From assembly GCA_000091205.1 (NCBI GenBank), contig AP006494.2: a stretch of DNA of 64,000 bases; one strand, given 5' to 3'. Positions within the stretch are counted from its first letter, which is position 1; each line of letters begins with the position of its first letter. Under the pieces are notes generated by a model, which saw nothing but the letters and a program-made list of their open reading frames with translations, was not told where the DNA came from and did no database searches. The position numbers and the translations under genes are program-made. Shown piece by piece: positions 37,870 through 59,078 of this stretch. The DNA is from Cyanidioschyzon merolae (lineage: Eukaryota).

Positions 37870-37882
37870 CACCTTGACACTA

Positions 37883-40312
37883 CAGTAGTGGCGAGAAGCC
37901 CGCCCTAGACAAGGCGCCGCCAACTAACGTGCAGACGCCTCGCAGTTTTTTTGGACCGGCCATCGACTACTGCTTCCACCTTTTTCTCATATGGTTCGAC
38001 TTTAAGTGATTGTCCAACAAAGTTCCCTCTTGTCAGCTCTGGAGGTCTCGTCTCCAGCACCGCACATTTCCTTATATTGATCGCGGCGATAAAGTCTCGA
38101 TTCAAAAACTCCATACGTTTCTTGCCATCAATGGTTGTGCTAACCAATACGAGTAGCCCTCGAACTTTCGCCATCCTTTCCATTTCCTCTTCCGTCAGCG
38201 GTCCGTGCTTTGCTATATCTTCAGGGCTCCTCTAGCGCCTTTCCATCTCGACCCTTTGAAGTGTACACCCCAGTTCATGGTGTGTAAACGTCGTTCGGAA
38301 CTCATCTACAGGTATCGTAACAAAACGCCTTGTGCACTCCTTGTGCACCCTCGTCGTTGGAGCTGGTGTACACCCTTTTTGTGTCTTCCAGCGCCCTGCT
38401 CCGTACGCTACTACGAGCCTTTGAATTTCATTCTCCTGCAAGGCGCTCAACTGATTGCGAAAATTCGCGAACGCGCGCTGCCTCCCACCGTATAGATTCA
38501 TTCGCAGACGAGCCCACCGGGGCTTGGTATACTCCTCCCACAGCGCATCCCGATGCGCAATGCGAAATTCCATGAACTCCCGAAAAGCTTCAAAGTCCGC
38601 TCCGCGGCTCGTCACCTCGCTCAAAGCTTCCAGGTGCTCTTTCACTCCTGCGTTCCACGTCTCGATTTTCTTCCTCGCATTCCTTATACCGGATTCTCGA
38701 TCGTATCACGCTCTCGAGAATCTCAACAGACGCATGTCTTTCTGACGCAAGTTACCGTCAGCGCCATCTTCCGCACGCTTGGGAGCAGCGATGGCTATGA
38801 TATTCGTATTCCCAGGGTCCGCGCCAACGACAAAGTCGTTATCCTGGACTTTCTGCGTCTCAATACCCGCCTCCTTCTTTTCTTCATGCTTCGTCGCGTC
38901 AACCGTAAAGTCGTTATCCTGTACTTCCTGCGTCGCAGCACCAGCCTCCTCCTTTTCTTCATCCTTCGTGACGGGTGCAGCCGGGGACGGAACTGGACGA
39001 TCTGTCTTCAAGCGCCGATAGTGTACACATATATATGGATACTCCATCGGTTTCGATCACACCAGTGAATACCTTTTGTTTGCTGACTTTGAGACGTTTG
39101 AAATTGAAGATGTTCTTCCAATACGTCTCCCGGTTTTCGCCGGTAAACTCCTCCCTGCTAACATTGAACTCTGGACTGATCTCCCTCATGATGCCACGAA
39201 GGATTCTGGAATCGATAGTCACGAAATGTGACGTGATGTTGCACATTGGAACCACGCTGATGCGCTTACCAATTAGGACAGCCTTCCGTCTCTCCCACTC
39301 TCCATTTGTCTCTTCACTCAGCATCACCTCTGCCTTGCACTCGAGTTCTCGGTCCAGAAACACAAAATAGCGCAGGATGAGGCGATAGTATCTTTCCTGA
39401 TCTTTTTCAGCTCTGATATCTTGTCTGTTGGATTCGCCAGCCCCAGTACAGCACGATGTTCTTGTATCACCGCACGGATTACAGAGGCTTCATTCGTGCT
39501 CCTGCGCGACTTCTTCTTGTCGACGGATTCGATCTCATGTTCACGCTTGCGATGCTTCGTGATGCCATTGATAATCGACCATATCCCCTTGCGAGAGATG
39601 CCAGGGTACAGCGCAGACACGGCGCGTATCATGAATCGTTCGAGATTCATTATCGAATGGTTCCTCAGGTTCGTGAGGTACTTCATCGCCCCATAGTCTT
39701 AAATACCCCAGTCACCCTTGATTCGAATACCCTCGAAGCTGTAAAAGGGATGTTTTTCGTGGAGGGCATCTACTAGCTCATTTTTCCTCCGCGCTTCCTC
39801 TGTACCAAGCATCAGGCGACTAAGAAACGTCTTGTCGCAAAACTCGTCTGGAATCTCGACCGTTTCCATGTGCGTCACGTCTTCGTACATCTCCCTCACC
39901 AAATGCATCAGTCCTAGCGACGCATTGACAATACTCTTCGAGTACGAGTCGACACGTGTTTCGATAGCGTCTCGCAACTTTTCCTTGTAGGGATCCTTGA
40001 TATGTCCAAGAAGAAAGGTTTGCACAACCATCTCGTCGGACAGTTGTCTTTCCCGCAGCCTTCGACGTAGGGCCTCCCCCTTTCGGTCCTTCTTCTCTTC
40101 CTTTTCTTCTGGACTCGGCACTGTTTTTTGTTTTTTTCTGGCAGCCGGCGACCCTGGGCCTCCAGGATCGTCAACTTGCATTTTCATGACTTTCCTTTTT
40201 TGTTTTTTGAAAAAGGACGCCCTTTGAACGCTTCTGTTATATACTGCTAATAATCAATTGAATATTTTTACTTGAGGTTTGAAACAAAATGAACTGAAAA
40301 ACTGTACTTGTC
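37883..40312 (-). mobile_element. Copy A of a ~2.4-kb repeated element encoding a TnpB/Fanzor-like RuvC nuclease (minus orientation); its 3' end lies 14 bp upstream of the ALDH start codon
   Basis: Near-identical to copy C (53069..55497) and to the 3' 1.3 kb of copy B. 5' boundary set where similarity to copy C ends, 3' boundary where similarity to copy B ends. Confidence 0.65.
37905..40187 (-). pseudogene. TnpB/Fanzor-like nuclease gene, copy A, disrupted (TAC>TAA nonsense near 39690; 1-nt deletion in an A-run near 39330 shared with copy C; in-frame TGA and TAG shared by all copies)
   Basis: Six successive ORF segments (39699..40187, 39324..39686, 38959..39363, 38706..39047, 38232..38645, 37905..38183) that concatenate into one TnpB-like protein: NLS-like N-term, FVVGADPGNTNIIAIAAP (RuvC-I), VVAYGAGRW...PVDEFRTTFTHHELGC, NRDFIAAINI (RuvC-III-like). 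Confidence 0.6.
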
Positions 40313-42391
40313 TATAAAGTTAAAGAAAATACAACTTTTACATTAGATCTACATGCTAGAGATCAGGATCACGTTCCCCTTCAACGGCGACATGTGCGTC
40401 GTGTCTCATGCCTGCCTGATCTCCCAGGCGTGCTCACCGAGCGCGATGCAAACTAGTCGCAAACTATTTATCAAAGAACAACTATCTTAAAGCCCCACAC
40501 ATTACGTCCGCCTAAGAGGTCTAGTTTTTCCGGAGAAGCTCTGAAAGTGGGTCAACGCGGGGTGTTCGAGCGACGGCGAAGGAAGCCCACGCCAGGGACC
40601 TTTACCGCAACGAACGGAGGGGCAGAGGCAGTAGCAGCAGAGAATGATGACGAGAGTTCTGAGTAGTCATCCGCCCCTCCGGAAACAACGCTGCAGGTTC
40701 GGGCGCAATTCCTGGATCAATCCTCGGACTCGGGCTCAGTATTACCTCCTACCATGGGTGCCAACCTCAACTTTGGAAACAATCTCGGCGGATGCTTTGG
40801 AAGACGGCTGGCAGTATGTTCACTGCCGAAGCTGGAACAAACGACTTGCCCGCCCATGTGTTTTGGGAGCGGATACGTAGCCGCTGAAAGGGTGGTTCAC
40901 AGAGTATCCCCAGTGGTTGAAGGTTGCTCCACGCGTTCGGCAGCGTAACGGTTGCATTCGAATCGACCTTGACTAGAGTACTTCTGATTCTACGCTAGCG
41001 CTGCGCCAAGCACTCAGTGAACGACTGGAATGCACGAGGCGCTTGTGGCATGTGCACTCACACACCCCGTGGAGGGTGCATCTAAATCGACGACGTATCT
41101 CTCGAGTACCGCAGCACTATTCCCATTCCCGTACGCGCTACGACTCGATAGGTTTCGCATCATGGAATATTTGCGGGATAGCCTCGGAATTGAACTACGA
41201 GATATCGAATTACCAGTACAGTAAAGAGGAACTGATACAAATCGAGGACTCTGCAATAGGAAAAGAGACCCAGCGGGATACGGAGAAGGAGACACAAAGG
41301 CCTCATGATCCACCTAGATGCAAAATAACCAGAGAAAGCAGCTCAGGAAAGAGCCCGAAGAAGACGAAGAAGACCAACAAGAAGAAACAGAAGAATAGAA
41401 AGAAGAGCTCCCGAACGAGCCCATCATGAGTGATCCCCTGAAAGAGCACCCCAGCGGGAACTCAAGAAAGCTGCCGCCAAACTCAATCACCTACTCACAG
41501 CGCTGAAGATCCGAAAAGCCATGCATGCAAGCCTTTAGACCAATTGGCACGCGAGTATGTATATGGGAATCAGAAGATTGCCAGAGAACTGGGACTGCTT
41601 GCACCAGAACGCAACAGTTGCAAACCTCGGTACCTGAAACGACGTACCAAAACTCGGAATGATGAATGCCACCGACTCTATAAGATCGTCAACCGCACCG
41701 CCATACGTGCCAACGCTGGAGACAAGGAAGCGAAAGCAGCGCTACCGGCGCTACAGGCGCAACATGAGGAAGCTATCAAAAGAAAGAAGAAACGTTCCAG
41801 AGAAGACAAACGAGAGGATCGAAACCGCAAAATCGCCTCCCTGACGGAATCTATGCTAGAGAGCACCAACGAAGATGAGACCTGACGCTCCATTCGATCG
41901 AGACTGGACGCACCAGAAAAGTGCTTGGGGCTCACACCAATCGTTCATAAGGAATCGCTGAGGACGGAGAGTGCCTCAGTGAATGAGACCGGGATAGACC
42001 ACGGGACAGAGCTGCATGAAGAAGCAACTGGGCACTGCCAAGACCCAGTCCATTGGTACCAATATGCTGCAGAACTACCGCGCCTCGAACATTACCAGCA
42101 CATGAATCGTTCCAGTGCAAACTACAGATATGATGCGAAAAATATCAATCGTGAAATGAGACAGTGTCGAGCGTCAGCGCACGCAGCACTGCCGCATAGA
42201 CCCACAGCGTCTAGCGACGAGCATCGCCCCAGTCTATCGCACGCGCCGCCGCGAAGATCCGGCACCGCAGGCCGCCGACGTGGGCGTGTCTGCGGCATCG
42301 GCTAGCTTCCAAGCGCCTTCAGCAAGCGCGGCCTCTGCTCCTGTTGCCGCTGCCGCTCGTGGTAAACGTACGTTACCGCACTTTGTGGGGC

Positions 42392-44002
42392 ATGTCGCTC
42401 GTTTTTGATGAGTATGGTAGACCGTTTATTATTTTCAAGGATCAAGACAGAAAGGTCCGGACGAAGGGCTTAGAGGCGATTCGGGCGAACGTTGCCGCAG
42501 CGACGGCCGTATCGCGCACCCTGCGAAGCTCGCTGGGTCCGAACGGCATGGATAAGCTGCTGGTTTCCGCCGACGGTGACGTTACCGTTACAAACGACGG
42601 TGCAACAATTCTGAAAGAAATGAACGTGAGCAATGAAGTTGCGAAACTTATGGTTGATCTGGCAAGCGCACAAGACGATGAGATCGGTGACGGCACCACT
42701 GGCGTCGTCGTGCTAGCAGGGGCCCTGCTCGAGCAAGCGCAACAGCTCCTGGACCGAGGCATGCACCCGTCAAGAATAAGTGACGGCTTCGATCGTGCGT
42801 GCGCGATTGCTGTGGATCATCTGGAAAAGATCGCCCAAGTTATGGAGCACACCAAGGCGGACACGTCACAACTGGTGCGGGCGGCAGTAACTGCGCTCAA
42901 CTCCAAGGTCGTCAAGCGTCATAGTGAGGCACTGGCACACGTGTGTGTGAAAGCGGTGCTTGCAGTTGCGGATCTCGAGCGACGTGACGTGAACTTGGAC
43001 TTGATCAAAATCGAAGGCAAAGTGGGCGGGCGCCTCGAGGACACGATTTTTGTCGACGGCATTGTCATCGACAAGGACATGTCGCACCCGCAGATGCCCA
43101 AACAAATAACCGATGCCAAAATCTGCATCCTGACGACTCCCTTTGAACCTCCCAAGCCGAAGACGAAGCACCGCCTCGAGATAAGCAGCGTCGAGCAGTA
43201 TCGCGAGCTGCAGCATGCTGAACAAGAATACTTCACGAACATGGTTAAACGAGTCAAAGACAGCGGTGCAAACCTGGTTATATGTCAGTGGGGTTTCGAC
43301 GATGAAGCCAATTCGCTCTTGTACCAGAATGGTATCTGTGCAGTTCGCTGGGTCGGCGGTGTCGAGATCGAGCTCATCGCGATGGCCACAGGCGGCCGCA
43401 TCATTCCGCGCTTCGAGGAGATCACTCCTGAGAAGCTCGGCCACGCTGCATCCGTCCGTGAGTTACATTTCGGGACGACACATGACAAGGTCATTGTCAT
43501 CGAAGGGTGCCGTAGCACCCGCGCAGTCACCATTTTGGTGCGCGGTGGCAATAAAATGGTGCTCGAGGAGACCAAGCGCAGCCTGCATGATGCGCTCTGC
43601 GTTGTACGCAACCTCATTCGGGATCAGCGGGTTGTGTGCGGCGGTGGTGCGTCTGAGATTGCTGGCGCTATCGCCGTAGCCGAGGCGGCGGATTGTTGCC
43701 TCGGACCCGAGCAGTACGCGATGCGAGCCTTTGCCGAGGCACTGGACTCGATCCCTATTGCCCTCGCTGAGAACAGCGGTCTGTCGCCCATTGAGACTCT
43801 GTCGAGTGTTCGCGCCCGTCAAATCGCTGAGCGCAAACCGTATTACGGCATCGATTGTCTCGGAATCGGCACGATGGATATGCGTGAGCAGAACGTTTAC
43901 GAAACACTGGAGAGCAAGAAGCAACAATTCCAGCTTGCGACGCAGCTATGTAAGATGATTTTGAAAATTGACGATATGCTCCAGCCGAATTCGTTGAGCT
44001 AA
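42392..44002 (+). CDS. CCT5: T-complex protein 1 (CCT/TRiC) subunit epsilon
   Basis: Collinear with CCT5 along full length: [94 protein letters not shown]. True start MSLVFDEYG at 42392 (ORF track begins 42344). Confidence 0.9.
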
Positions 44003-44228
44003 AGAAATCAATTCCCTCGTCTCTGCGCTCACTGTACATGCGATTTGGCTCATACGCTGAGACCGCTGCACAAAACCCCAAGATCGCTAGCATCCGCGCT
44101 CCCTTGGCCATGCAACGCTTTCGAGCGCTGCAGCGGTGTTGCCAGGTCACGAAGGTCACGTAACGCTTCTGACCGCGTTTTCGTTATGCGCAACCGATCG
44201 TACCTGTTATCTCACCAGATTCGGCAAC

Positions 44229-45632
44229 TTAGTCTTGCTCTGGTGTATCTTCAAGTAGACGTCGAACCTCTTCGGCGAGCATGTCAGCATCTTGGCCGGG
44301 AGGCAGTGTCATGGACTCGGTACCTGCCACGTCGAGAAGATCTTCCACATTAACGTACTGCGAGAGGTCGAAGTCTTCCTCGGGAGCACCCGCTCCTGGA
44401 TGCATGCTTTCTGTTGCCGCCTCTGTATCCATGCCTGGATTGGGCTCGTTCTCATCATCGAGTAAAAGGATGGAGGGGCCTTTCGGACGCGAGTCGGCAA
44501 TGTCCGTCGGCATCGCTGGCGGTCCATCAGGTTGAAGCTGCCGATTGACTGCGGTGTTGCTCGACTCATCCCAAGCCGGTGCTTCGCCGCTCGGCAGGCC
44601 GGTGTCACGCTCCGCGTCGCTTGAGGTGGAGACCACTGCAACCGTCGGGTTCGCGGTGTTCCTCAGGGCCATATTGGCCATCTGGAGCTGCGCCATGAGG
44701 TTGCGAATGAGCTCAATCGATTCGGGGTGAGCGTTCCGTAGCACCAGCGACTGGGACGTGGGCGTCAGCGATTGCGGTTGCTGGCCCTGCAGCGGCGGCG
44801 AGGACGGCGGGTACGACTCCACCACGCTGTCGGTCATGAGCTCCCCGGTATCCCCCTTATACTCAATGCTGCCTATTGAGCGACCCGCTGTGCCTGCCAC
44901 CGGCTCGGTGGGCACGTTCATCAACCGCTTGCGTTTCCGTTCATCCAATTTGATCCCGTGTTGTTGCAGCAGCAACTGGAACGACTGGTAAATGAATTGC
45001 TTCATCTGTTCGACGCTGCTCTCTAGCTGTTGAATGCGTTGCTCACTGTATCGGAGTTTGCGCTCGAGTTCTATTTGGCGATGCCGCGAAGCCAGCAGCT
45101 CCTGCAGAAGCAGCTTCTTGTCGCGGCGGAGCAGCTCTACGTCCGGAGCACTGACGGAGCTATCCGGCCCGAACCCGTAGTTGCCGATCTCAAGTGCTGC
45201 GGTGTGTGGCGGGCTCGACTCTTTCCGCACCAGCGTTCTTGATGGTCGTCGACGCGTCACTTTGGAGAGCCACTCTGGATGATCTCGCACAAAGTACCGG
45301 TTCCCAAACACAAAGTGATCGCTGTCCAGCTTGCGAAAGCCGTATTGGTTCAGTTGTCGAGCGAAACTGGTAAAGTTACTGTGCTTGAAGTAACGCGGCA
45401 GAACCGTCCGGGCGAACTCACTGGGTAAATGAACTTGAAACGAAAGTCCATCGTCCCTCCAGGAGATGAGGTCGTCGGTAGCCGGATCATCGACCATAGC
45501 CCGCAACTTGGTGACAAACGGAGGCATCAGCGCTTTCTCCCACGCCGCCTCGATGGAGGACAACTCACTCGAATCTCGAGGAGGTCGGGAGGCAGCCTCT
45601 CCATGTACACTGTTGGTTACACTCTCTGTCAT
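44229..45632 (-). CDS. HSF: Heat shock transcription factor (HSF-type winged-helix DNA-binding domain plus coiled-coil oligomerisation region)
   Basis: HSF DBD signature FVTKLRAMVDDPATDDLISWRDDGLSFQVHLPSEFARTVLPRYFKHSNFTSFARQLNQYGFRKL; followed by heptad-repeat region (ELERKLRYSEQRIQQLESSVEQMKQFI). Confidence 0.8.
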   Translation of the reverse strand: MTESVTNSVHGEAASRPPRDSSELSSIEAAWEKALMPPFVTKLRAMVDDPATDDLISWRDDGLSFQVHLPSEFARTVLPRYFKHSNFTSFARQLNQYGFRKLDSDHFVFGNRYFVRDHPEWLSKVTRRRPSRTLVRKESSPPHTAALEIGNYGFGPDSSVSAPDVELLRRDKKLLLQELLASRHRQIELERKLRYSEQRIQQLESSVEQMKQFIYQSFQLLLQQHGIKLDERKRKRLMNVPTEPVAGTAGRSIGSIEYKGDTGELMTDSVVESYPPSSPPLQGQQPQSLTPTSQSLVLRNAHPESIELIRNLMAQLQMANMALRNTANPTVAVVSTSSDAERDTGLPSGEAPAWDESSNTAVNRQLQPDGPPAMPTDIADSRPKGPSILLLDDENEPNPGMDTEAATESMHPGAGAPEEDFDLSQYVNVEDLLDVAGTESMTLPPGQDADMLAEEVRRLLEDTPEQD

Positions 45633-46048
45633 GGTTTGTGTTCAAGAAAGAAAAGTTTCCCCGGAAACCCAAAACAATCAACGAGTAAGAGGGTATCGAA
45701 TAACGTCAAGATGTTCGCCGCTCGGGAGCTTTCAACTGGATTCTGTTCCGAGCGTGCTGCGTGCAATCCACTGTTTTTTCTCAGGGTAGCGCAAGAGATC
45801 GAAATCACGATGCAAAGTATCTTATGGAGCTGGGATGGGTTGCCTGTAGGATGTATATTCTTTAGTGAAGTGCCCATGGAGGACTGCATTCATCGTTCAG
45901 GTCAGTCATAGCTCAGTACGCATATGGTTGAGGAACACTGAAAGAATGTAGCGTATGCGGTCCGCGTAAAAACTGATATTCCTTAAAGACAGTTTGCGGT
46001 CAGTGGTAGAAAACGAACAGTTCATCATCTTATGGAAAGCAAAAAGCG

Positions 46049-46704: not shown

Positions 46705-49085
46705 CTTCTTACCTGGGGGCATGAAGAAGTGTGTTCTATTTCAAAAATAAACAAGCCAATGGAAAGCTATCGACATGCAGGTCGGGGATCCTGGAGGGCC
46801 ATCTTCGCCGGGTTCGGCGAAGAAAACGGAAAACAATACCGATCCCAGGGGAACAAGAGAAGGCGAAGAAGCACAAGCAGGAAGCCAGGCGTCAAAAGCA
46901 ACTAGAAAGACGACAACACCGCGAGATTTGAGTGAAAGCTTGTCTTCTGAGACATACCAAGGATTCGTACAAGCAAAATTCACAAGAGGCTGTCAGAATC
47001 CTTGTCGCGTCGTACTCCAGGAGGGAACATTAGGCTTCTTTAGGACTCATGCATTTGCTGAAGGAGATGTACGACAACGTGCCGCATATGGAAACAGTCG
47101 ATATTCCAGAGGAATTTTTCAACAAGACCTTTATTCGTCACCTGACGCTTGGCACAGGGGAAGCGCCGAGGAGAAATGAACTGGTGCATGCCCTCCATGA
47201 AAATCATTCCGAGTACCGCTTCAACGGTGTTCGATGCAAGGGTGACTAGGGTATGTACACCTACGAAGCGATGAAGTACCTCACGAATCTGAAGAACAGT
47301 ACGACCATGAACCTCCAACGTTTCATGATACGCGCCATCTCTGCGCTGTACCAGGGCCTCTCTCGCAGAGGGATACGGGCCATCATCGACGGCATCACGA
47401 ACGATAGTACGAGTGAACAGGAGACCGAATTCGTCAAAGAGAAGACATCACGCAGGGGAAAGAATGAAGCTTTTGTGATCGGTGCAGCTATTCAAGAGCA
47501 TCGTGAAGTCTTGGGGCTTGTCAACCCAGCAGAAATGGTATCAGATGTGAAAAAAGATGAGGAATGATGCTCTCCCCTCAACCTGTGCTATTTCGTATTC
47601 CTGAACCGAGAACTCGAACGCAAGGCGGAGACGGAGCAAAGTGAAAAAAAAGAAGAGACAGACAGACAGACGGACAGACGGAAGGCTGTGCTGCTGGAGA
47701 AGCGCTTCAACGTCGATCCGTTGTCCAACATCAAGTCATATTTTGTGACAATCGACTCCAAAATCCTTTACGGCATCATGAGGAAGATCAGTCCAGAGTT
47801 CAATGTTAGCAGGGAGGAGTTTACCGGCGAAAACCGGGAGACGTATTGGAAGAACATCTTCAATTTCAAACGTCTCAAAGTCAGCAAACAAAAGGTATTC
47901 ACTGGTGTGATCGAAACCGATGGAGTATCCATATATATGTGTACACTATCGGCGCTTGAAGACAGATCGTCCAGTTCCGTCCCCGGCTGCACCCGTCACG
48001 AAGGATGAAGAAAAGGAGGAGGCTGGTGCTGCGACGCAGGAAGTACAGGATAACGACTTTACGGTTGACGCGACGAAGCATGAAGAAAACAAAGGAGCGG
48101 ATCCTGCGATGCAGAAAGTCCAGGATAACGACTTTGTCGTTGGCGCGGACCCTGGGAATACGAATATCATAGCCATCGCTGCTCCCAAGCGTGCGGAAGA
48201 TGGCGCTGACGGTAACTTGCGTCAGAAAGACATGCGTCTGTTGAGATTCTCGAGAGCGTGATACGATCGAGAATCCGGTATAATGAATGCGAGGAAGAAA
48301 ATCGAGACGTGGAACGCAGGAGTGAAAGAGCACCTGGAAGCTTTGAGCGAGGTGACGAGCCGCGGAGCGGACTTTGAAGCTTTTCGGGAGTTCATGGAAT
48401 TTCGCATTGCGCATCGGGATGCGCTGTGGGAGGAGCATACCAAGCCCCGGTGGGCTCGTCTGCGAATGAATCTATACGGTGGGAGGCAGCGCGCGTTCGC
48501 GAATTTTCGCAATCAGTTGAGCGCCTTGCAGGAGAATGAAATTCAGAGGCTCGTAGTAGCGTACGGAGCAGGGCGCTGGAAGACACAAAAAGGGTGTACA
48601 CCAGCTCCAACGACGAGGGTGCACAAGGAGTGCACAAGGCGTTTTGTTACGATACCTGTAGATGAGTTCCGAACGACGTTTACACACCATGAACTGGGGT
48701 GTACACTTCAAAGGGTCGAGATGGAAAGGCGCTAGAGGAGCCCTGAAGATATAGCAAAGCACGGACCGCAGACGGAAGAGGAAATGGAAAGGATGGCGAA
48801 AGTTCGAGGGCTACTCGCATTGGTTAGCACAACCATTGATGGCAAGAAACGTATGGAGTTTTTGAATCGAGACTTTATCGCCGCGATCAATATAAGGAAA
48901 TGTGCGGTGCTGGAGACGAGACCTCCAGAGCTGACAAGAGGGAACTTTGTTGGACAATCACTTAAAGTCGAACCATATGAGAAAAAGGTGGAAGCAGTAG
49001 TCGATGGCCGGTCCAAAAAAACTGCGAGGCGTCTGCACGTTAGTTGGCGACGCCTTGTATAGGGCGGGCTTCTCGCCACTACTAT
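46705..49085 (+). mobile_element. Copy B of the TnpB/Fanzor-like element (plus orientation); 5' ~1 kb divergent, 3' ~1.3 kb near-identical to copies A/C
   Basis: Homology to copies A/C from the leader (caaaaataaacaag...atgcaggtcggggatcctgg) through the shared 3' tail ...gggcttctcgccactact; lacks the ~60-bp TATA-containing leader segment present in A/C. Confidence 0.6.
46775..49062 (+). pseudogene. TnpB/Fanzor-like nuclease gene, copy B, disrupted (AGA>TGA nonsense at ~47565; extra stop between segments 47049..47249 and 47253..47567; shares the conserved in-frame TGA and TAG)
   Basis: ORF segments 46775..47179, 47049..47249, 47253..47567, 47688..48008, 47920..48261, 48283..48735, 48784..49062 collinear with copy A/C segments. 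Copy B is in-frame where A/C carry the 1-nt deletion. Confidence 0.6.
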
Positions 49086-49157
49086 ACACCGCTGCCGTCG
49101 TTCGACTTAGAACGGCTTTTGGTATTGGCGGTGGTACAGCGGCCTTGCCTCGTGTTT

Positions 49158-50084
49158 ATGGCAACGAGCGTTTCGGAAAGCGAGTTGCAACTGCTTCCGC
49201 ACTGGCTTTCGTGTATCCATGCGAAGCGGTCAACCTGGACGTGTTCCCAAGACTATGCGCGGTTCGTTCGGCTCTTGCGGGATATCTCCTTGGAGCTCTA
49301 TGTGGCGCGCAACCAGCCCAACGTGCTCGTTCAACTCGCACGTTACGGTTCAGCGTGCACACGGGTTGTGAACGATCTTATCACGGTCTGGAGTGTTCCG
49401 CTTCTACACGAGAGCGTTTCCAGGGCGGTGATTCGGTTTCTAGTGGTTTGTCAGACCGGCAGCGGACCAGAGCAAGTCAAGAGGCGGGCTCTGGCCTGGG
49501 CGCGACACCTGCTGCGACTCGCTGTCTCTCCAGCGATCAACGCAACCTTTATCGATGAGGGCTTAGGTTCAGCTCGAGTTGTGGATGAACTTTGCACTGT
49601 TATCGGGGCCATGGGTTGCCAGGCGCGCATACCAGCTGAACTTGGCGTTCTGATTCCATCGCTCATTCAGGGTGCATGCTGTGCAGACCTTGTTGCTGCT
49701 CTCGTGCCGACGATTGCGGCAATGCTCGAGTCGCAAGCGACCAGTCCCGCATGGCGTCATGCCGTTCGCTGCGCATTCACCTGGGAAGATGCGGAAACGA
49801 AGTACTGTGCTTTTCGCGACGGGTTGTCGGCGACTCTGCAAAATATGCTCCTCGCGGCAGACGCGCAGCTCTTGTGCCAGTGCCTCCAGTCCCCGGAGGC
49901 ACTACTCAAAACACCGCTGGATCATCTCAGCGAGCGATTCGATCACATTCGCCTCTTCTTGCGTTTACAACATGGAGCGGATCCGGATACCAAGGCATCT
50001 GCTGACGACGTCAATACAGTCTCGACGCAGAACCAGAGCGGACCGGATCTCGCAACGACGCCTCGAGCAGGAACGATGACCTGA
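49158..50084 (+). CDS. Hypothetical protein of unknown function (start reassigned to first ATG downstream of the element end)
   Basis: ORF-track ORF 49044..50084 starts with a TTG inside the mobile-element tail; coding-like composition continues for ~310 aa after ATG 49158. No recognisable domain. Confidence 0.3.
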   Translation: MATSVSESELQLLPHWLSCIHAKRSTWTCSQDYARFVRLLRDISLELYVARNQPNVLVQLARYGSACTRVVNDLITVWSVPLLHESVSRAVIRFLVVCQTGSGPEQVKRRALAWARHLLRLAVSPAINATFIDEGLGSARVVDELCTVIGAMGCQARIPAELGVLIPSLIQGACCADLVAALVPTIAAMLESQATSPAWRHAVRCAFTWEDAETKYCAFRDGLSATLQNMLLAADAQLLCQCLQSPEALLKTPLDHLSERFDHIRLFLRLQHGADPDTKASADDVNTVSTQNQSGPDLATTPRAGTMT

Positions 50085-50594
50085 GGCGTATTCGCATTTT
50101 GGTGCTGGTGATGCGGTGCAGCAACGTGATCCATCGGTTGCACGAAGGAGCACTCGCTGGTATTTTCGACGAAATGCGACGAATTTGCGGTCAGCGCGCA
50201 GGCATCTCGGGTCGAGCACCCAGTCTGATGTGCGAGCGATCGCAGCCTCCGAGCCATTCCTGCACTGAACCAGATCCAATTTACATTTTGCAAATCTCCG
50301 AGGGATTCGAACGGCCTTGGCGGGCGGGCCCGGAATGCTTCATCGTGGGACTGCGGCAGAGTGCAGGTGTTCCACACGCCGGACTGTTCACGTCGCCCAT
50401 GGATGCCCGCCAGGAGGCATGGGCGAGCAGCTCGTCTCTAACTGCTGGCGCTCCTGCATGCGGACGCTATACGCACCCACACATACAGAGGGAAAGAGAG
50501 AGACTGCCACCGGTTTCGTTTCGTATGAAGCTACGCCCATTCATGAAACTGATAGGCGCGCGAACGGGTTCGAATACGTGGCGCGCGGGATGCG

Positions 50595-51026: not shown

Positions 51027-52379
51027 ATCAGTATCCAGTCGGCACAGTGACTGTGCCTCTTCACCAGTGACGGGCTCTTGACGAAAACCGAAGCACCAGG
51101 TACAGTGCTCGACCGCGCCGCTGCAGCACGCAGCGGGCCAACACTGTCAGAGAGTTTCGACGTTGACGTTCGCGCCGAGGCTCGCCAGCGCGCATGATGC
51201 ACGCTCGTCATCTGTTCATTCGTGTTTTGTATGTTTATTCATGAACATATGAAGGCAGTATCTGGTCCAGACGCGCATGGCCTACCCATGTCCGATCGAG
51301 GTCGCGAAACCTTGTTCAATGAATGAGATCGAGTGGACGAAGCCTTTAAAGCCCCAGATGCGTCGATGCTGACAGCTAGCTGGGCAGAGGCCGTCGTTCA
51401 CCTACAGATGCTTCTCCGCTCGATAAGCGAGCGATCAGTCCTCCCGTCAGACTCAGAAAATAGAGGCAGCCACTGTTGGGGTACAACGCGAACCGTGAGC
51501 TCCGTTCCGCAACGCTGGATGCACTGCCGCCGCTGACGCCATGCGGCAGGAGAACGGCTCTTCGTTGCGTTTAGAGGCGGCGCCTGAAGAGTTCGCGGTA
51601 TCTGCGTAGCGCACCGATCAAGCAGGGATCCCTTGCGTAGATCCACAGAATACAGATGTTTGATGGTGTCGGAACGGTGGATCTTAGCCAGTGCCGCCCG
51701 GAGATGTGAAGAAGGTACCTGCTCGGAGAGCGCTTCCACGATGTACTGCAGTCAGATGGATGCCTGGAATGCAAGGTTCGGAAAAATGATCGGTTTTATG
51801 AACGCAACAAAGACTCGCCAATATGAAAAATGCAATTGACTACGAATTTTCCGGTGATTTCGTGAACGCGTCCGTGTGGAATACATCCTATTCATGCTCG
51901 AGTTTGGGATGCAAACAGCAGCGGTTGGTGCATATCCAGAACGTCCACCAAGGGAATCCATCTGATCTTCCTCACTTACAGGATATACATACGGCCAGCG
52001 ATGAGGTCCATCGGATTCATACGTCTGGCTGCTTTCATCTATGCGGTGTAGACACGCTGGACAATGAAGCTTCTACTCCAAGGTGTCGCTTATGAGCCCT
52101 AGAGCCACTGCAACGAAGCTGCTCTTGTCCGGACTTGCAACCCAGCGCAACCCAATGGTCAGCGTCCACTAGAATCCGACACAGCAGCCCGTTACCCGCA
52201 GACATCAGAATGGAAGCGTCTCGCTGCAGGACGATGGGCATGCGCCGCAGTCTTGCCAATGAGCCGGATCAATCGCCGCATCCGTAGAACAAAGAACAGA
52301 GACCAACTACCAACTAGCAACGAGATAACGATTTCTTTCGCCATCTACGATAAACGTTAAAATGAGGAAAAGTTTCCTC

Positions 52380-52860
52380 GTTGGCGAAAGTTTACCTTAC
52401 AGGCGGAAGGTCCCGCGAGCTGAACGAGTGTGCCCGGCGAGTGCTTCATGCGACTCTACAGAGGCAGATGCCAAAGTAAGATATGAGCAGCAGCTCATCG
52501 TAACGCAATGCTTTCTGGGAATAGGAGCAGGACGCTGCGTCTGGGCGTCGCCCTTGTCGCAGCGGACTCCTCGTATATCGCTTCGCAGTGCCGCAGACAG
52601 TACGTCTGTCTGCGCAGCTCGCAGGCTCCCAGAATGATCATGAATCCAGACCCGGTATCGGGTGAAGCATTCCTCGAGCCGAGGCCCTCAGTGGTATAGC
52701 AAAGCCGTTCGAGCTCCATGAACTATCTGCTCCAGCGGTTCAAGCGCAAAGGTGGATGATTAGGGTAGGTACGAGGCACACACGATAGGACGTATGAAAC
52801 GACCAAAATATCCGAGAAGAAGTATAGGTAATGTAAATTGGAGGTAGGTGCTTCATCACG
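52380..52860 (+). repeat. Dispersed repeat family R1 (copy 1); related copies at 60100..60420 (+) and 58340..58640 (-, partial)
   Basis: Shared blocks gtttaccttacaggcggaaggtcccgcg..., gggtgaagca..cctcgagccga.gccct, ctatctgctccagcggtt.aag...ggatgattagg.taggtac.aggcacacacgataggacgtatgaaacgacca.aatatccgagaa...gtataggtaatgtaa read directly in both places. Confidence 0.5.
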
Positions 52861-53068
52861 GACGCTTTCCAGAAAGCCGTTATCCTTTCCGAATTCTAGG
52901 ATCCATGGTCAATGGAAACGTCTTGTCAATAAAAAAATCGCGCTCAATGGGCGCACCCCGGAGATCGGGCAGTCAACTGACGCGATGCGCGTGCCGTTGT
53001 TGAAGGGAAACTCAATTGGGATCAGTAACGTGTTGTTCAGCTGTGAACGTCGGATATCGGTCCAGGCC

Positions 53069-55497
53069 ATAGCAAAGTACAGTCTTTCAGTTCGTTTTTG
53101 TTTCAAACTTCAAACAAGTCCAGTCAAGTGTTTTTTTGCAGTATATAACAGCAGGGTTCAAAGAGCGTTCTTGTTCAAAAAAAAAGAAAGCTATCAAAAT
53201 GCAAGTCCACGATGCTGGAGGCTCAGTGTCGCCGGCTGCTAGAAGAAAACAAAAAACAGTGCCGAGTCCAGAAGAAAATGAAGAGAAGGAGGACTGAAAG
53301 GGGAGGCTCTACGTCGAAGGCGGCAAGAAAGACAACTGTACGACGAGATGGTGGTGAAAGCTGGTCTTCCTAAACATATCAAGAATCCGTACAGGGAAAA
53401 GTTGCGAGACGCTATCGAAACACGTGTCGACTCGTACTCGAAGAGTATTGTCAATGCGTCGCTAGGACTGATGCATTTGGTGAGGGAGATGTACGAAGAC
53501 GTGACGCACATGGAAACGGTCGAGATTCCAGACGAGTTTTTCGACAAGACGTTTCTTAGTCGCCTGATGCTTGGTACAGAGGAAGCGCGGAGGGAAAATG
53601 AGCTAGTAGATGCCCTCCACGAAAAACATCCCTTTTACAGCTTCGAGGGTATTCGAATCAAGGGTGACTGGGGTATTTACAGCTATGGGGCGATGAAGTA
53701 CCTCACGAACCTGAGGAACCATTCGATAATGAATCTCGAACGATTCATGATACGCGCCGTGTCTGCGCTGTACCCTGGCATCTCTCGCAAGGGGATATGG
53801 TCGATTATCAATGGCATCACGAAGCATCGCAAGCGTGAACATGAGATCGAATCCGTCGACAAGAAGAAGTCGCGCAGGAGCACGAATGAAGCCTCTGTAA
53901 TCCGTGCGGTTATACAAGAACATCGTGCTGTACTGGGGCTGGCGAATCCAACAGACATGATATCAGAGCTGAAAAAGATCAGGAAAGATACTATCGCCTC
54001 ATCCTGCGCTATTTTGTGTTTCTGGACCGAGAACTCGAGTGCAAGGCAGAGGTGATGCTGAGTGAAGAGACAAATGGAGAGTGGGAGAGACGGAAGGCTG
54101 TCCTAATTGGTAAGCGCATCAGCGTGGTTCCAATGTGCAACATCACGTCACATTTCGTGACTATCGATTCCAGAATCCTTCGTGGCATCATGAGGGAGAT
54201 CAGTCCAGAGTTCAATGTTAGCAGGGAGGAGTTTACCGGCGAAAATCGGGAGACGTATTGGAAGAACATCTTCAATTTCAAACGTCTCAAAGTCAGCAAA
54301 CAAAAGGTATTCACTGGTGTGATCGAAACCGATGGAGTATCCATATATATGTGTACACTATCGGCGCTTGAAGACAGATCGTCCAGTTCCGTCCCCGGCT
54401 GCACCCGTCACGAAGGATGAAGAAAAGGAGGAGGCTGGTGCTGCGACGCAGGAAGTACAGGATAACGACTTTACGGTTGACGCGACGAAGCATGAAGAAA
54501 AGAAGGAGGCGGGTATTGAGACGCAGAAAGTCCAGGATAACGACTTTGTCGTTGGCGCGGACCCTGGGAATACGAATATCATAGCCATCGCTGCTCCCAA
54601 GCGTGCGGAAGATGGCGCTGACGGTAACTTGCGTCAGAAAGACATGCGTCTGTTGAGATTCTCGAGAGCGTGATACGATCGAGAATCCGGTATAATGAGT
54701 GCGAGGAAGAAAATCGAGACGTGGAACGCAGGAGTGAAAGAGCACCTGGAAGCTTTGAGCGAGGTGACGAGCCGCGGAGCGGACTTTGAAGCTTTTCGAA
54801 AATTCATGAAAGTTCGCATTGCGCATTGGGATGCGCTGTGGGAGGAGTATACCAAGCCCCGGTGGGCTCGTCTGCGAATGAACCTATACGGTGGGAGGCA
54901 GCGCGCGTTCGCGAATTTTCGCAATCAGTTGAGCGCCTTGCAGGAGAATGAAATTCAGAGGCTCGTAGTAGCGTACGGAGCAGGGCGCTGGAAGACACAA
55001 AAAGGGTGTATACCAGCTCCAACGACGAGGGTGCACAAGGAGTGCACAAGGCGTTTTGTTACGATACCTGTAGATGAGTTCCGAACGACGTTTACACACC
55101 ATGAACTGGGGTGTACACTTCAAAGGGTCGAGATGGAAAGGCGCTAGAGGAGCCCTGAAGATATAGCAAAGTACAGACCGCTGACGGAAGAGGAAATGGA
55201 AAGGATGGCGAAAGTTCGAGGGCTACTCGTATTGGTTAGCACAAGCATTGATGGCAAGAAACGTATGGAGTTTTTGAATCGAGACTTTATCGCCGCGATC
55301 AATATAAGGAAATGTGCGGTGCTGGAGACGAGACCTCCAGAGCTGACAAGAGGGAACTTTGTTGGACAATCACTTAAAGTCGAACCATATGAGAAAAAGG
55401 TGGAAGCAGTAGTCGATGGCCGGTCCAAAAAACTGCGAGGCGTTTGGACAACAGATGGAGACGTTTCGCCTGGGGCGCGTTCGCCGCCTCTACTGTA
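53069..55497 (+). mobile_element. Copy C of the TnpB/Fanzor-like element (plus orientation), with divergent 3' terminal ~90 bp
   Basis: Collinear with copy A over ~2.4 kb including the TATA-containing leader gcagtatataacag. Diverges from A/B after ctgcgaggcgt (55441) but keeps a related terminal ...cgccgcctctactgta. Confidence 0.65.
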
Positions 55498-55507
55498 CCG
55501 CTGGTGA
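53198..55507 (+). pseudogene. TnpB/Fanzor-like nuclease gene, copy C, disrupted (early stop after residue ~30 plus frameshift near 53290; 1-nt A-run deletion ~54000 shared with copy A; conserved in-frame TGA 54671 and TAG 55145)
   Basis: ORF segments 53348..54055, 54016..54420, 54332..54673, 54695..55147, 55196..55507. RuvC-I GADPGNTN at ~54554-54575; Cys/His Y/FTT segment 55043-55144; NRDFIAAINI at 55277-55306. Confidence 0.6.
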
Positions 55508-55632
55508 CACCAACGTTTTTCTTTTGAAAGACGTTCGTTGTCAGCGGTGTGCTCGCTGCGCTTTCGCAGCCGATTTTGTGACCCGAACGGCTTTATCGCC
55601 ACTGGGGTGCGGCACCGTGCCCGGTAGCGCTT

Positions 55633-57546
55633 GTGGGCACTGTTCGAAGCTGTCCGGTGTGTCCAGTGCGGCTTTTATTCTATGAGAATACGCGTACGCA
55701 TAGGAGAGTGATGGAAGGAGACCTGCACGCTGCTTCCCAGGAGGTATCTGTGACCGGGGCTAGACCTCCAACGTCGAGGCGCCAGCGCGCGCCTACAGCC
55801 TCTGAGCCCGGGTCCACGCCGCCGGAGCACCACACGGCGAGTCAGTCGAATGTGCGGGCGTATCGTGAGACACTCACGCCCTTGCCTTTGGGGCAACTCA
55901 ACAGTAGTAGCTTCCAACCGGGGTCTGGTATGGGCGCAGCCAAGCACGCTGCGAGTGCAGCAGGGTTTTCCGCTCCGAACGTCGGGCGCTCGCCGCATGG
56001 CGTCGGGACCGTGAACGGCACCATAGACCGCGGGCTCTACGCGGGAGCAACGCCGACGCTCAACATGTACGGAGGGGGTTATGTCGGCAGTGGCGGCATG
56101 CTGCTAAGTCCGACGCTGCTTGTAGCGGCGGCTGCGGCCGCGGCACGCTCCACGAGTTCAAGTCCACACCGTTCGATGGTGGACAGCTCGAGCCCCACGT
56201 TGATTCTTGCAGCGAACCATAAGAATAACATGAACAGGATCTCAACCGGGATATCCCCGCACACAAACGCGTACCACTTGGGGGCAAATATACCACCGCA
56301 ATCCGGTGATGGATCCGCCGTCGCCGGGAGTGCGCCCGTTCCAGAATCGTCGAACAGTACCCCGTTCTGGATCGATGACACCAACTTTGATGCAAACGGC
56401 TATATATACGCGAGCATGTCGAACCCGTATGGGTACGGCGGTGGCGACTCGGCCACAGTCCCAGGAGCTGGCCCGTATTCGGGCGTTTCGATTTCGCCTC
56501 TGCCCGGTTTCTCCATCGGATCCCCATATCGCTCCTTGGTGCCGGGCACGCCGCACGCGACGATGATGTGGCCGGCACAGCATCCTACGGGAACGTCTGT
56601 CATACAAACAAGTGCCGATCTCGAGAGGGATCCACGGGATACAGGCACCAAACAACGCATGGACCGGGGATTGTTACCACCGTGTCCATCCCCGGATCGG
56701 AAGCTCATATCAGCGTGGAACCGAGCTCAGCGGCGAGAGAAAATGGAACGCGAGCGAGCGCAGAAACGCTCTTTGGAGCAAATGAGAGCCCGCAAGGGTT
56801 CAGCCTCTTCAACCTCGCAGCGTGAGTATGAGCGCGTTTCGGATACGTCCCCGAAGACGGCGTGTGCCTTTCCAAGCGAGCCTTTCGAAGACTCGTCCGG
56901 AGACACCTGTGAGCAGCCTAGTGTACGAATCGCTTCGGAGCACAGTCGTGAAGATCACAGCTCCGCGGCGACCAGTTCAGCGATCCAGAGGCACCAGTCG
57001 AGCTGGGTGCCGAGTCAGCCCTCGATCCGTGCGGACCAAAGCAACAGTCATGAGACTAGCGGCAGGGCACCGAGTACGCGAGAGACACGGGCGCAGCGCA
57101 ATCGAGAAGCAGCAAGGCGCAGTCGGTTGAAAGTGAAGCGTCTCATAGCTGACCTGGAGGAACGAAATGCGGCGTACGCTCACCTCTTACGAGAACGCGA
57201 GAATGAGATCGAGCGATTACGTCGGGAAAACGCCACGTTACAGGAACAAGTGGCGCAGTGCACGGCGATCAGGGATGTGGCAGGAGAGGCATCCGCTGAG
57301 GCGCCTCCATCGATTCCGAAGCACGTTTTGGATCCGCCAGTCATCACAAGAGGTACGTCAAAAGCGACGACCAGGTCAGACGACTCGCCATCACGTTTAG
57401 TGTCGTCGGAGCATGAGCATCTCTCCGCACTAGCATCGGTTGCACGTGATGCACAGGGCGCGCCACCCGGCACCGTCAACCGATCAACATCGAGTGGTGA
57501 CGTTTCGGCATTCGCCCAACTGCAGGAGCCTGCGTCCGTGCTCTGA
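55633..57546 (+). CDS. bZIP transcription factor with long low-complexity (Ser/Pro/Gly-rich) N-terminal region; N-terminal boundary uncertain
   Basis: Basic region AQRNREAARRSRLKVKR followed by heptad Leu zipper LIADLEERNAAYAHLLRERENEIERLRRENATLQEQV. Confidence 0.6.
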   Translation: MGTVRSCPVCPVRLLFYENTRTHRRVMEGDLHAASQEVSVTGARPPTSRRQRAPTASEPGSTPPEHHTASQSNVRAYRETLTPLPLGQLNSSSFQPGSGMGAAKHAASAAGFSAPNVGRSPHGVGTVNGTIDRGLYAGATPTLNMYGGGYVGSGGMLLSPTLLVAAAAAAARSTSSSPHRSMVDSSSPTLILAANHKNNMNRISTGISPHTNAYHLGANIPPQSGDGSAVAGSAPVPESSNSTPFWIDDTNFDANGYIYASMSNPYGYGGGDSATVPGAGPYSGVSISPLPGFSIGSPYRSLVPGTPHATMMWPAQHPTGTSVIQTSADLERDPRDTGTKQRMDRGLLPPCPSPDRKLISAWNRAQRREKMERERAQKRSLEQMRARKGSASSTSQREYERVSDTSPKTACAFPSEPFEDSSGDTCEQPSVRIASEHSREDHSSAATSSAIQRHQSSWVPSQPSIRADQSNSHETSGRAPSTRETRAQRNREAARRSRLKVKRLIADLEERNAAYAHLLRERENEIERLRRENATLQEQVAQCTAIRDVAGEASAEAPPSIPKHVLDPPVITRGTSKATTRSDDSPSRLVSSEHEHLSALASVARDAQGAPPGTVNRSTSSGDVSAFAQLQEPASVL

Positions 57547-57879
57547 TCGCTGCAGCGCATGAATCCACAGTCGAGGTCTCGTGGCTCGCGGAGCGTGCCC
57601 TCGAAGCCGCGCACTGACGGCCGGGTCTGTCCCGTGACGCCCATCTGCGAGCGACGCAACAAGCGGACACATGTCGACGCGCAATAGCCGCAGATGCACC
57701 TGGCAATGATCCGGACACCGAATATCGCGCCCAAGCTGAACGCATCACCTGAAGCGAACTTGTTCGATGCGAAAGATGTAGCAGCCAGTTGTATGCCGGT
57801 GCTTGCGCATCCAACCATCCAGCCATCCAACCATCCAGCACAGATGCCCATTGCTGCGCTGCGATCGGCAATGCTAGGC

Positions 57880-57965
57880 GAAAAGCGCGTGCTCCGCCGA
57901 GCCTCCACGTGCGATGGCGCCTGCTGGTGGGATCTCTGGAGCAGCGCCCTGCTGCGGTGCCCTGT
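57880..57965 (+). repeat. Short dispersed repeat R2 (second copy at ~59095..59170)
   Basis: ccgc.gagcctcca.gtgcgatggcgc..gctggtgg.atctct.gagcagc shared between the two loci; gives similar peptide RRASTCDGACWWDLWSS / RGASRCDGARWWYLSSS in the ORF track. Confidence 0.4.
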
Positions 57966-58735
57966 CGTTGCCTGCTGGTTTTTTCAGATGACAAAACGTT
58001 TCCATTGACCATGGATCCCTGAAGTCGGAATGGATAATGGCTTTCGTGAAAGCGTCCATGATGAAGCGCCTTCCCTCAAGTTCCGTTACCCGTACTTCCT
58101 CTCGTCTGCACTGGTCGTTTCGTATGTTCTATCGTACGCCGAGTGCCTGTTTTGAGCACCCACCGTAGCGCTCACACCACTGAAGCAGATGCTGCACAGA
58201 GACAGAACGGCCTTGTCATGCCACTGAGAACGTCGCCTCGACGCGTAGTTCTCCGACACGGAATCGGGATTCATCTTCAATCTGGGAGACAGCAAGCTCC
58301 ACAGTCAGACCTAATGCCTGTGGCAGCGCGAAACGATAGCTAGGAGACAACCGCAACCATGACGACACCTGGATGCATTCTAACCAATTCTAGTCTCAGA
58401 ATAAACAGCGTTGCGGGCGAGTTGCTCAGGTCGCGCCACTGCACGCGCCACTGGCAGGAGCATGAAGCACGATCCTGGGAGACTCGTCTGGCCCGCGGGA
58501 CCTTCCGCCTATAAGGTAAACGTTCGACAGTACGGAAAGCTTTTCTCCCTTGTAACATGTATCTTAGGGGGGAAATAAATATTGATATACTTGCCGGTGA
58601 GTCGTGAGTCTCGTACCTTTTTTCGATATCGCGCATTCAACACGCGCACCTGGGAGGTCAGGCCGTCGCGAGACACGACACGCATGTCGCCGCTGGGGAG
58701 AAACCCGATCGTGACCAATCGTTTACTGTTTGTTC

Positions 58736-59078
58736 TACAGTACAAGTTGTGTTTGCGTTGACGTCGTAGCCGAGTATGGTGTTTCAATTCGATTATGTTT
58801 CAACGCTCATGTGAGCGTATCCAAGCGATTTTTCCCAGTTTGTATCAGAAGCGTTCAAAGGGCGTTGTTTTTCAAAAAAATAAAAAGGAAAGATATGGAG
58901 AAGCCAGTCGAGGATCCTGGGGGCGCAGCGTCGCCGGCAACCGGAAAAACAACAAACAAAAAACAGTGCCGAGTCCAGAGGAACGGAGAAGGACGTAGAA
59001 GCAAAACGGTGCGGCCCTACGTGAAATGCTGCAAGAAAGACGACATTACGACGACATGACGGTGAAAGCGTGTCTTCT
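58736..59078 (+). mobile_element. Copy D: 5'-terminal fragment (~340 bp) of the TnpB/Fanzor-like element (leader plus first ~55 codons), truncated and joined to repeat R2
   Basis: Matches copies A/C from gtacag...gttcaaagggcgtt...aaaaaggaaag.atgga.aagccagtcgaggatcctggggg through ...gacggtgaaagcgtgtcttctaaac, then diverges into R2-like sequence. Confidence 0.5.

Follow-up and report, generated by a model that had tools for sequence, protein, structure and literature searches.

Four loci (A to D) in a 64,000-nucleotide (nt) stretch of the red alga Cyanidioschyzon merolae, hereafter called the window, are with high confidence old, dead insertions of CMe-1A, a transposable-element (TE) family that encodes a Fanzor1 protein. 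The repeat family and its Fanzor1 assignment are already known, as both were published in 2013 and are present in Repbase. The RNA-guided activity of Fanzors was established in 2023 in other species, and as a discovery the loci in the window matter little. Their value lies in a verified annotation and in a large clade of algal Fanzor1 proteins in which the Asp-Glu-Asp (D-E-D) triad is kept and the four-cysteine (C4) zinc finger is missing. The additions made here are modest: a conserved, covarying 3ʹ hairpin past the end of the published consensus, which offers a concrete starting point for finding the omega-RNA, a composite 5ʹ side of the element, probable gene conversion among the copies, and the clade lacking the zinc finger.

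CMe-1A was described in the paper that defined Fanzor (Bao & Jurka 2013, Mobile DNA 4:12; PMC3627910). According to that paper, the family numbers about 150 copies, with ~80% identity each to a consensus of 3,169 bp, and its Fanzor1 protein, CMe-1, is 734 amino acids (aa) long. The element has no terminal inverted repeats (TIRs), its target-site duplications (TSDs) could not be determined, the first 635 bp of the consensus are another repeat, TE-N2_CMe, and part of the copies are still intact. We took the consensus and the CMe-1 protein from the supplements of the same paper and mapped them on the window by blastn. The loci were 81-89% identical to the consensus at the DNA level over up to 2.5 kb, and the 761-aa protein that was rebuilt by stitching the reading frames was 76.5% identical to CMe-1 across its whole length (734 aa). 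The window loci and CMe-1A thus belong to the same family in the same organism, have no TIRs, and share the ~640-bp TE-N2_CMe module, which was found in D and, inverted, beside C. They differ from the published element in being pseudogenes that were apparently homogenised by gene conversion. The origin of the DNA was confirmed by the CCT5 protein encoded at 42392-44002, which is identical to BAM80858.1 / XP_005536894.1 of C. merolae 10D, and a bacterial origin of the loci was rejected because the neighbouring genes are C. merolae genes.

An earlier sequence-only reading of the window had claimed that the four loci share one element of about 2.4 kb. Repeat searches agreed with this, as did the match to the consensus: copy A, on the minus strand, was 98% identical to C over 2,136 nt and 97% identical to B over 1,435 nt, yet only 78-79% identical to B over the adjoining ~620 nt, and D was 74-77% identical to the 5ʹ parts of the other copies. 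This repeat similarity is far beyond chance. The description of D as a protein fragment did not hold in that simple form, since D contains the ~640-bp TE-N2_CMe-like 5ʹ module, the 5ʹ untranslated region and roughly 180 nt from the start of the Fanzor1 open reading frame (ORF). The boundaries of all copies were refined against the consensus, and two pieces that had been missed, an inverted TE-N2_CMe-like module and a TE-N2-like fragment, were added (Table 1). The TE-N2 module is contiguous with the Fanzor part in D only; it is absent from A and B. Copy A is truncated at its 3ʹ end, and the terminal hairpin described below was not found there.

Three-frame translations and a four-way alignment located stops and a frameshift in each of the long copies A, B and C, so that the earlier judgement that every long copy is disrupted was borne out; the peptides that the reading had quoted (ARKKQKTVPSPEEKEEKKDRK, FVVGADPGNTNIIAIAAP, VVAYGAGRWKTQKGC, PVDEFRTTFTHHELGC and NRDFIAAINIRK) were all found in the translations. 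The three copies have a TGA, a TAG and a frameshifted (AT)n run in common. In addition, copy A has a private TAA, A and B bear further private stops, and A/C and B each carry further private defects. The family-invariant Asn of the RDxNAA motif is replaced by Ile in A, B and C. In intact relatives and in the published consensus, the frame is open, with Arg (CGA) at the TGA site and Gln (CAG) at the TAG site, and both lesions are plain C-to-T transitions. A, B and C are pseudogenes, and neither an active nuclease nor RNA-guided activity can come from these dead copies. Identical lesions in three copies could in principle mark a conserved recoding signal, and the copies would then be functional genes whose stops and frameshifts reflect sequencing errors, introns, recoding or programmed frameshifts. 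We consider this extremely improbable, because intact relatives and the consensus read straight through the lesion sites, A and B have private stops, the invariant Asn of RuvC-III has been lost, the gaps are much too short for introns, and the neighbouring genes use the standard code. Introns and recoding were rejected on the open frame of the intact relatives.

The single reconstructed protein gave no match in Pfam or the PDB. A search with a single sequence was not sensitive enough, and it was therefore replaced by profile searches. Thirty close relatives, all from JGI data, were found in a large protein collection, among them an uninterrupted relative of 752 aa as called (P0001). Searching with a profile built from this set gave 1,499 cluster representatives at E <= 1e-3, of which many are 580-700 aa long, and this puts the size of the clade at no fewer than 1,499 cluster representatives at 50% identity. 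The clade includes a green-algal protein (P0083, Tetrabaena socialis PNH08370.1), such proteins being annotated only as hypothetical, and Pfam covers the relatives weakly, as DUF8286 (PF26935). From 35 diverse full-length members, with ~30% identity to P0001, we built the family alignment that is used throughout. When its profile was run against all PDB sequences with hmmsearch, only three proteins matched, and all of them were Fanzor1: PpFz1 of Parasitella parasitica (2e-19), SpuFz1 of Spizellomyces punctatus (2.1e-12) and GtFz1 of Guillardia theta (1.2e-7). The alignments span the REC-like blocks through RuvC-III.

Structure prediction gave the same assignment. An AlphaFold run on P0001 with close relatives only was unusable (predicted local distance difference test, pLDDT, 33.5) and was repeated with the diverse alignment, which yielded an AF2 model with a pLDDT of 80 and a predicted template modelling (TM) score of 0.78. 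In a Foldseek search of this model against the PDB, the top seven hits were Fanzor1 structures, with E from 2.6e-17 to 8.5e-14 and a target-normalised TM score of up to 0.73, while Cas12 variants, Fanzor2, TnpB and Cas12f trailed at E >= 7e-3. Both profile and fold place the encoded protein in the Fanzor1 clade. The sequence-only reading had called it TnpB/Fanzor-like from its motifs and Fanzor-type from the eukaryotic neighbouring genes, and had proposed both a hidden Markov model search and a structure prediction as checks; these and the published assignment agree with it, the profile search succeeding where the single sequence had found nothing. The absence of any Pfam or PDB match for the single sequence and the weak filing under DUF8286 would also fit a chance set of short motifs in an unrelated repeat protein. 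The probability of this is vanishingly small, and it is refuted by a profile that matches three Fanzor1 structures and nothing else, by a full-length fold match at E = 2.6e-17 and by the published assignment.

The 35-member alignment placed the predicted catalytic residues. D484, P485 and G486 of the GADPG segment (P0001 numbering) are invariant or almost invariant. At the canonical RuvC-II position, the wider family reads AYGxAKF, and an invariant Glu, in VDEFRT(S/T), stands 33 residues downstream; VDEFRT aligns to DEFRTS of PpFz and to DEYKTS of SpuFz. The sequence-only reading had seen no evident canonical RuvC-II glutamate and had likened this to the rearranged glutamate of some Fanzor1 proteins, with loss of activity as the alternative, and the Gly at AYGAG followed by the displaced Glu corresponds to that feature (PMC10530073, which describes the rearranged RuvC-II site for Fanzors). 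The same arrangement has been called the 'DPG + Ealt' signature of Fanzors (PMC10711439). In RuvC-III, intact relatives and the published consensus have NRDFNAAINI, and across the 35 members the R, N, A and N of NRDxNAAxNI are invariant and the Asp is nearly invariant. The putative D-E-D triad is conserved, its members being the Asp of GADPG, the Glu of VDEFRT and the Asp of NRD (D725).

The overall fold of the P0001 model matches that of the solved Fanzor1 ribonucleoproteins SpuFz1 (8GKH, 9CEU-9CEZ), PpFz1 (9CF0-3) and GtFz1 (9CER-T), and so do the order of the conserved blocks (KYxTNxKNH, FITIDT, TDGVS, DPG, DEFRTS, RGLL-C, NRDxNAAxN) and the RuvC signature of DPG plus an alternative Glu. 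However, their identity with the CMe-1 family is only 12-15%, and the CMe-1 family has a 25-aa tandem repeat, variable in number, in a disordered linker before RuvC-I. With bacterial TnpB (e.g. ISDra2 TnpB, 8H1J) and Cas12f, the family shares the RuvC/RNase-H core and the RDxNAAxNI motif of RuvC-III; the fold matches to the P0001 model are weak (Foldseek E 0.06-0.2, prob 0.99), and the matches to PF07282 are sub-threshold. Unlike TnpB, it carries Gly in place of the canonical RuvC-II Glu, its N-terminal half is much larger, its host is a eukaryote, and it has no TnpA partner.

Comparison of the copies along the consensus revealed a mosaic. A and C were 98-100% identical only across consensus ~1109-3020, and A and B were 99-100% identical only across ~1900-3120; elsewhere, both element ends included, the identity between copies was 27-83%. 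In B, the 5ʹ ~1 kb was only 66-83% identical to A and C, whereas the 3ʹ ~1.2 kb was 99-100% identical to A. Each copy was 85-90% identical to the consensus in this comparison. The flanks beyond the elements were unrelated between copies, and a segmental duplication was rejected for this reason. The sharp internal switches between ~100% and ~75% identity point to ectopic gene conversion among old insertions, and we infer that the near-identity of A, B and C, which lie within 17 kb, came from such conversion with an already dead donor and not from recent transposition. C. merolae is a recombination-proficient alga. Alternatively, a dead, non-autonomous CMe-1A master could have been mobilised in trans and have produced three nearby insertions with no gene conversion. 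The same stops, frameshift, Asn-to-Ile replacement and extra 25-aa repeat unit in all three copies would fit such an event, as would the unrelated flanks, which leave no room for segmental duplication. Fresh copies of one master, however, would be uniformly alike end to end, and the identity instead changes abruptly inside the elements (A-C at ~1109 and ~3020; A-B at ~1900) and is low in the rest, which makes recent transposition quite improbable. If clustered dead copies were indeed homogenised by gene conversion, copy identity would therefore be an unreliable clock for transposition age in the C. merolae genome.

To describe the family beyond the window, we gathered 71 further CMe-1A copies from hot-spring metagenome contigs (the loci with L numbers). 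Most of them (about 30) begin at consensus 638-689 and lack the TE-N2 module, and about 7 have the module contiguous. The head-to-head arrangement of TE-N2 that is seen at C recurs in L016, L019, L022, L025, L033, L055 and L058. A TE-N2-like module was also seen to start about 40-56 nt past the 3ʹ end of CMe-1A (L022 3642-3698 and L035 1803-1859; also L007 and L034), and from this spacing we suggest that TE-N2 and CMe-1A insert side by side, or form tandem arrays. The core that is shared by the copies opens with ATCGCGCTCGGTGAGCGC…, itself a short GC hairpin (GCGCTC-GGT-GAGCGC), and at least four different upstream modules abut it. Because most copies lack TE-N2 and several upstream modules abut the core, the published consensus looks composite, and the 5ʹ side of the element is, as judged from these junctions, modular. 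One upstream module that takes the place of TE-N2, …CGGACACGTGTCCTTCATCGATCGGTGAGGCGTCTCGCGCGGTGCACGC followed directly by ATCGCGCTC…, lies about 75-100 nt upstream of the core and is common to 12 metagenomic copies (L007, L008, L014, L027, L030, L036, L038, L042, L064, L068, L072 and L075). Yet another (…GTTCTTTGATAAATAGTTTGCGACTAGTTTGC…) is common to copy A, L049, L006 and L010.

Conservation at codon positions 1, 2 and 3 was 0.899, 0.914 and 0.847, respectively, in about 60 copies, with the largest contrast in the RuvC half. Third positions vary most, which indicates that the lineage from which the copies arose was under purifying selection at the protein level. If an RNA scaffold overlapped the 3ʹ end of the ORF, synonymous variation there might be suppressed, but no clear signal of this was seen. 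A full-length ORF is kept in only 1 of 72 loci (L004), and an ORF spanning RuvC-I to RuvC-III in 9. In L004 (5937-6010), the consensus-start ATG was one base out of frame with the called ORF, inside an A-run (AGAAAAAACAAAAAAC), and the first ~20 codons of P0001 are possibly out of frame with the upstream ATG; therefore, either the N-terminus of P0001 is uncertain or this copy has a homopolymer error. A 75-nt (25-aa) unit, KHEEKKEAxPATQEVQDNDFxVDAT, immediately precedes the RuvC-I strand in 1 to about 6 tandem copies across loci (L004-L074), and this segment was predicted by AlphaFold to be disordered. The 75-nt internal repeat escaped Tandem Repeats Finder in the window, where each copy has two diverged units.

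Homology among the copies ends about 60 nt past the stop codon, at the published end of the consensus. When copies were folded individually, the element was found to continue 13-20 nt further than the published 3ʹ end, and this extension forms the 3ʹ arm of a terminal hairpin that typically closes with CACC…GGTG. The inner stem has two variants, CGUUCGA-CUU-UCGAACG and CGUUUUUC-UUUU-GAAAGGCG. In the outer stem the sequence varies and the pairing is kept, as in L063 (CACGCCCGAC…GUCGGGCGUG) and L047 (CACCGUUGGC…GUUGAUGGUG). Copy B carries the first variant and copy C the second, and the 92-nt tail of C had a fold z-score of -4.2. A covariance model (R1) built from 16 copies of the first variant, which does not detect the second, gave 41 matches; the strong ones were all on the sense strand at element 3ʹ ends, copy B (49084-49128) included. 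In the hairpin alignment, 77.9% of the cells were paired, compared with 36-47% in slid controls, the covariation score was 0.170, compared with 0.03-0.08 in the controls, and there were 24 double-change cells, a number that 1 of 500 shuffles reached. G·U was the commonest pair at 5 of the 19 hairpin positions. The sense strand was more stable than the antisense strand in 36 of 49 copies (mean -29.6 vs -25.9 kcal/mol, p = 0.001). When the last 320 nt were aligned with MAFFT, RNAalifold returned only a small GC hairpin after the stop codon; the terminal hairpin was missed because the two variants were misaligned.

We regard this hairpin as the best candidate for the final stem of an omega-RNA scaffold, although it could instead be a signal for single-strand transposition. 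SpuFz1, GtFz1 and TnpB suggest by homology how an intact member would work: it would make a nuclear protein of ~735-750 aa that enters the nucleus via its basic N-terminus. CMe-1 would then bind an omega-RNA that is transcribed from the 3ʹ end of the element encoding it, with the hairpin as the last stem and the adjacent flank as the guide. Through a RuvC site formed by the Asp of GADPG, the Glu of VDEFRT and the Asp of NRD, it would cut DNA that matches the guide next to a target-adjacent motif, as experiments have demonstrated for other Fanzor1 proteins, and this may help the element to persist. Because the element lacks TIRs and TSDs and carries a hairpin near each end, its movement would be compatible with a single-strand or rolling-circle mechanism, Helitron2-like or IS200/IS605-like, with the transposase supplied in trans.

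The same features allow the 3ʹ hairpin and the GC hairpin at the core start to be read as DNA-level cis signals for such transposition and not as parts of an omega-RNA. CMe-1A is without TIRs or detectable TSDs (PMC3627910), homology stops at the base of the 3ʹ hairpin, the core starts with a short GC hairpin, and G·T pairs are tolerated in single-stranded DNA hairpins, so that the strand asymmetry would be compatible as well. The Fanzor1 elements CRe-1 to CRe-3 of Chlamydomonas reinhardtii provide a precedent: they are Helitron2 elements with hairpins at both ends (PMC3627910) and resemble CMe-1A in being Fanzor1-only, non-autonomous, without TIRs and resident in a unicellular alga. On the other hand, asymmetric terminal inverted repeats were not evident in CMe-1A on inspection by eye, no systematic search being made; a RepHel or Y1 transposase was not seen in the window or the loci, again with no systematic search made; and the 5ʹ boundary is not fixed, given the variety of upstream modules. 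CMe-1A accordingly differs from CRe-1/2/3, as asymmetric repeats (by eye), the 5ʹ-T/TC rule and a RepHel partner were not shown for it and its 5ʹ end is variable. A DNA-level role is plausible, although we lean against it as the sole explanation; in TnpB and Fanzor systems the right end serves both roles, and the two readings are not exclusive.

Several points weigh against the interpretation of CMe-1A as a Fanzor1 family with a guide-RNA hairpin at its 3ʹ end and converted copies in the window. In the whole clade, the four Cys of the C4 zinc finger (OrfB_Zn_ribbon / PF07282) between RuvC-II and RuvC-III are not conserved: the region reads …RTSYTHHELGC…VRGLLALVST in CMe-1 and …VRGLLWCxST in the wider clade, so that, relative to solved Fanzor1, HHEL replaces the first CxxC and one Cys is left of the second. 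PF07282 matched below threshold only (best E = 5e-4, cut-off 26.3 bits, 23 of the 35 members). For these two reasons, the catalytic competence of intact members is putative. The zinc finger was part of the original Fanzor/TnpB motif, and CMe-1 was nonetheless filed as Fanzor1 (PMC3627910); 'many', not all, Fanzors have it (PMC10711439). As for the hairpin, the covariation counts overstate independence because the copies are related and the alignment was fitted to the model, about 35-45% of rows lack pairing in the outer third of the stem, and the strand asymmetry is equally compatible with a single-stranded DNA signal. A scan of the whole window with Rfam returned no family match, and RNA or activity data for the CMe-1A family were not found in the consulted Fanzor papers of 2023-2026 or supplements of PMC10432273. 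The case for gene conversion, finally, is drawn from identity patterns alone. In the same papers, RNA-guided activity was not reported for any Fanzor of C. merolae, and Cyanidioschyzon is not mentioned in the consulted supplements of the 2023 Nature Fanzor paper.

A further-reaching proposal, which we regard as unlikely, is that the CMe-1-like clade represents an active Fanzor1 lineage lacking the zinc finger, with an omega-RNA that ends in the G·U-rich hairpin. The conversion tracts would then have been left by double-strand breaks that an intact member introduced in trans and that were repaired with a paralogous copy as template, which might maintain the family in a homing-like manner.

Table 1. 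Positions of the CMe-1A copies, their motifs, lesions and hairpins, and the TE-N2-like pieces in the window
Feature	Position	Strand	Remarks
Copy A	37881-40421	-	Consensus 671-3134; blastn 85-88.5%; Fanzor1 pseudogene
Copy B	46727-49133	+	Consensus 869-3145 (46727-49097), 82-88%, plus 3ʹ hairpin arm; mosaic pseudogene
Copy C	52939-55547	+	Consensus 648-3169 (52939-55533), 82-88%, plus 3ʹ hairpin arm; pseudogene
Copy D	57987-59078	+	Consensus 2-1084; blastn 81% over 1,098 nt; 3ʹ side truncated
Inverted TE-N2_CMe-like module	52285-52928	-	Consensus 4-642; blastn 82% over 645 nt; head-to-head against the 5ʹ end of C
TE-N2-like module fragment	60176-60384	-	Consensus 84-288; blastn 76% over 209 nt; also a direct repeat in repeat searches
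75-nt unit, two diverged units per copy	A 38827-38982; B 47985-48140; C 54397-54552		
RuvC-I, GADPGNTN	A 38802-38825 (-); B 48142-48165; C 54554-54577		Asp corresponds to D484 of P0001, invariant
Canonical RuvC-II position, VVAYGAGR	A 38391-38414; B 48553-48576; C 54965-54988		Gly; G623 invariant
Alternative RuvC-II Glu, VDEFRTT	A 38289-38309 (-); B 48658-48678; C 55070-55090		E656 invariant
RuvC-III, NRDFIAAINI	A 38073-38102 (-); B 48865-48894; C 55277-55306		Asp kept; invariant Asn (N727) replaced by Ile
Common frameshift in (AT)n run	A 39021-45; B 47922-46; C 54334-58		…ETDGVSIY / ICVHY…
Common TGA	A 38706-08; B 48259-61; C 54671-73		…RFSRA(stop)YDRE…
Common TAG	A 38232-34; B 48733-35; C 55145-47		…MERR(stop)RSPED…
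3ʹ hairpin of copy B	49087-49133	+	CGTTCGA-loop-...GAACGGC; outer stem CACCGC...GGCGGTG; R1 41.9 bits, E = 5e-9
3ʹ hairpin of copy C	55498-55547	+	AACGTTTTTC-TTTT-GAAAGACGTT; outer stem CCGCTGGTGACA...TTGTCAGCGG; minimum free energy folds; past the consensus end

Other repeats were observed around the copies. Copy D is bracketed by an 87-nt direct repeat that is 86% identical (57859-57945 and 59082-59168) and is placed 41 nt upstream of the start of D and 3 nt past its truncated end; possible origins are an old, long target duplication, a recombination scar and a piece of another repeat. Just downstream of D, 59233-59400 belongs to another repeat family, outside the published CMe-1A consensus. 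Its relatives in other loci (L004 5501-5667, L005 273-439, L070 32-268 and L016 3-104) are inverted, directly upstream of CMe-1A 5ʹ ends, with 82-91% identity. Further inverted-repeat pairs were 16298-16418 vs 60108-60228 (78%) and 9327-9426 vs 14512-14611 (72%); the segment 16298-16418 may be another diverged TE fragment, as its partner borders on the TE-N2-like fragment (60176-60384). No tRNA was found in a scan of the whole window. Two mechanically called ORFs, 36043-37923 (minus strand, aldehyde dehydrogenase) and 49044-50084 (plus strand, unnamed gene), start inside the 3ʹ ends of A and B, respectively, and open with the near-identical peptides MAAPCLGRASRHY… and MATPCIGRASRHY…. These peptides are read-through artefacts of ORF calling with alternative starts and not common gene sequence.

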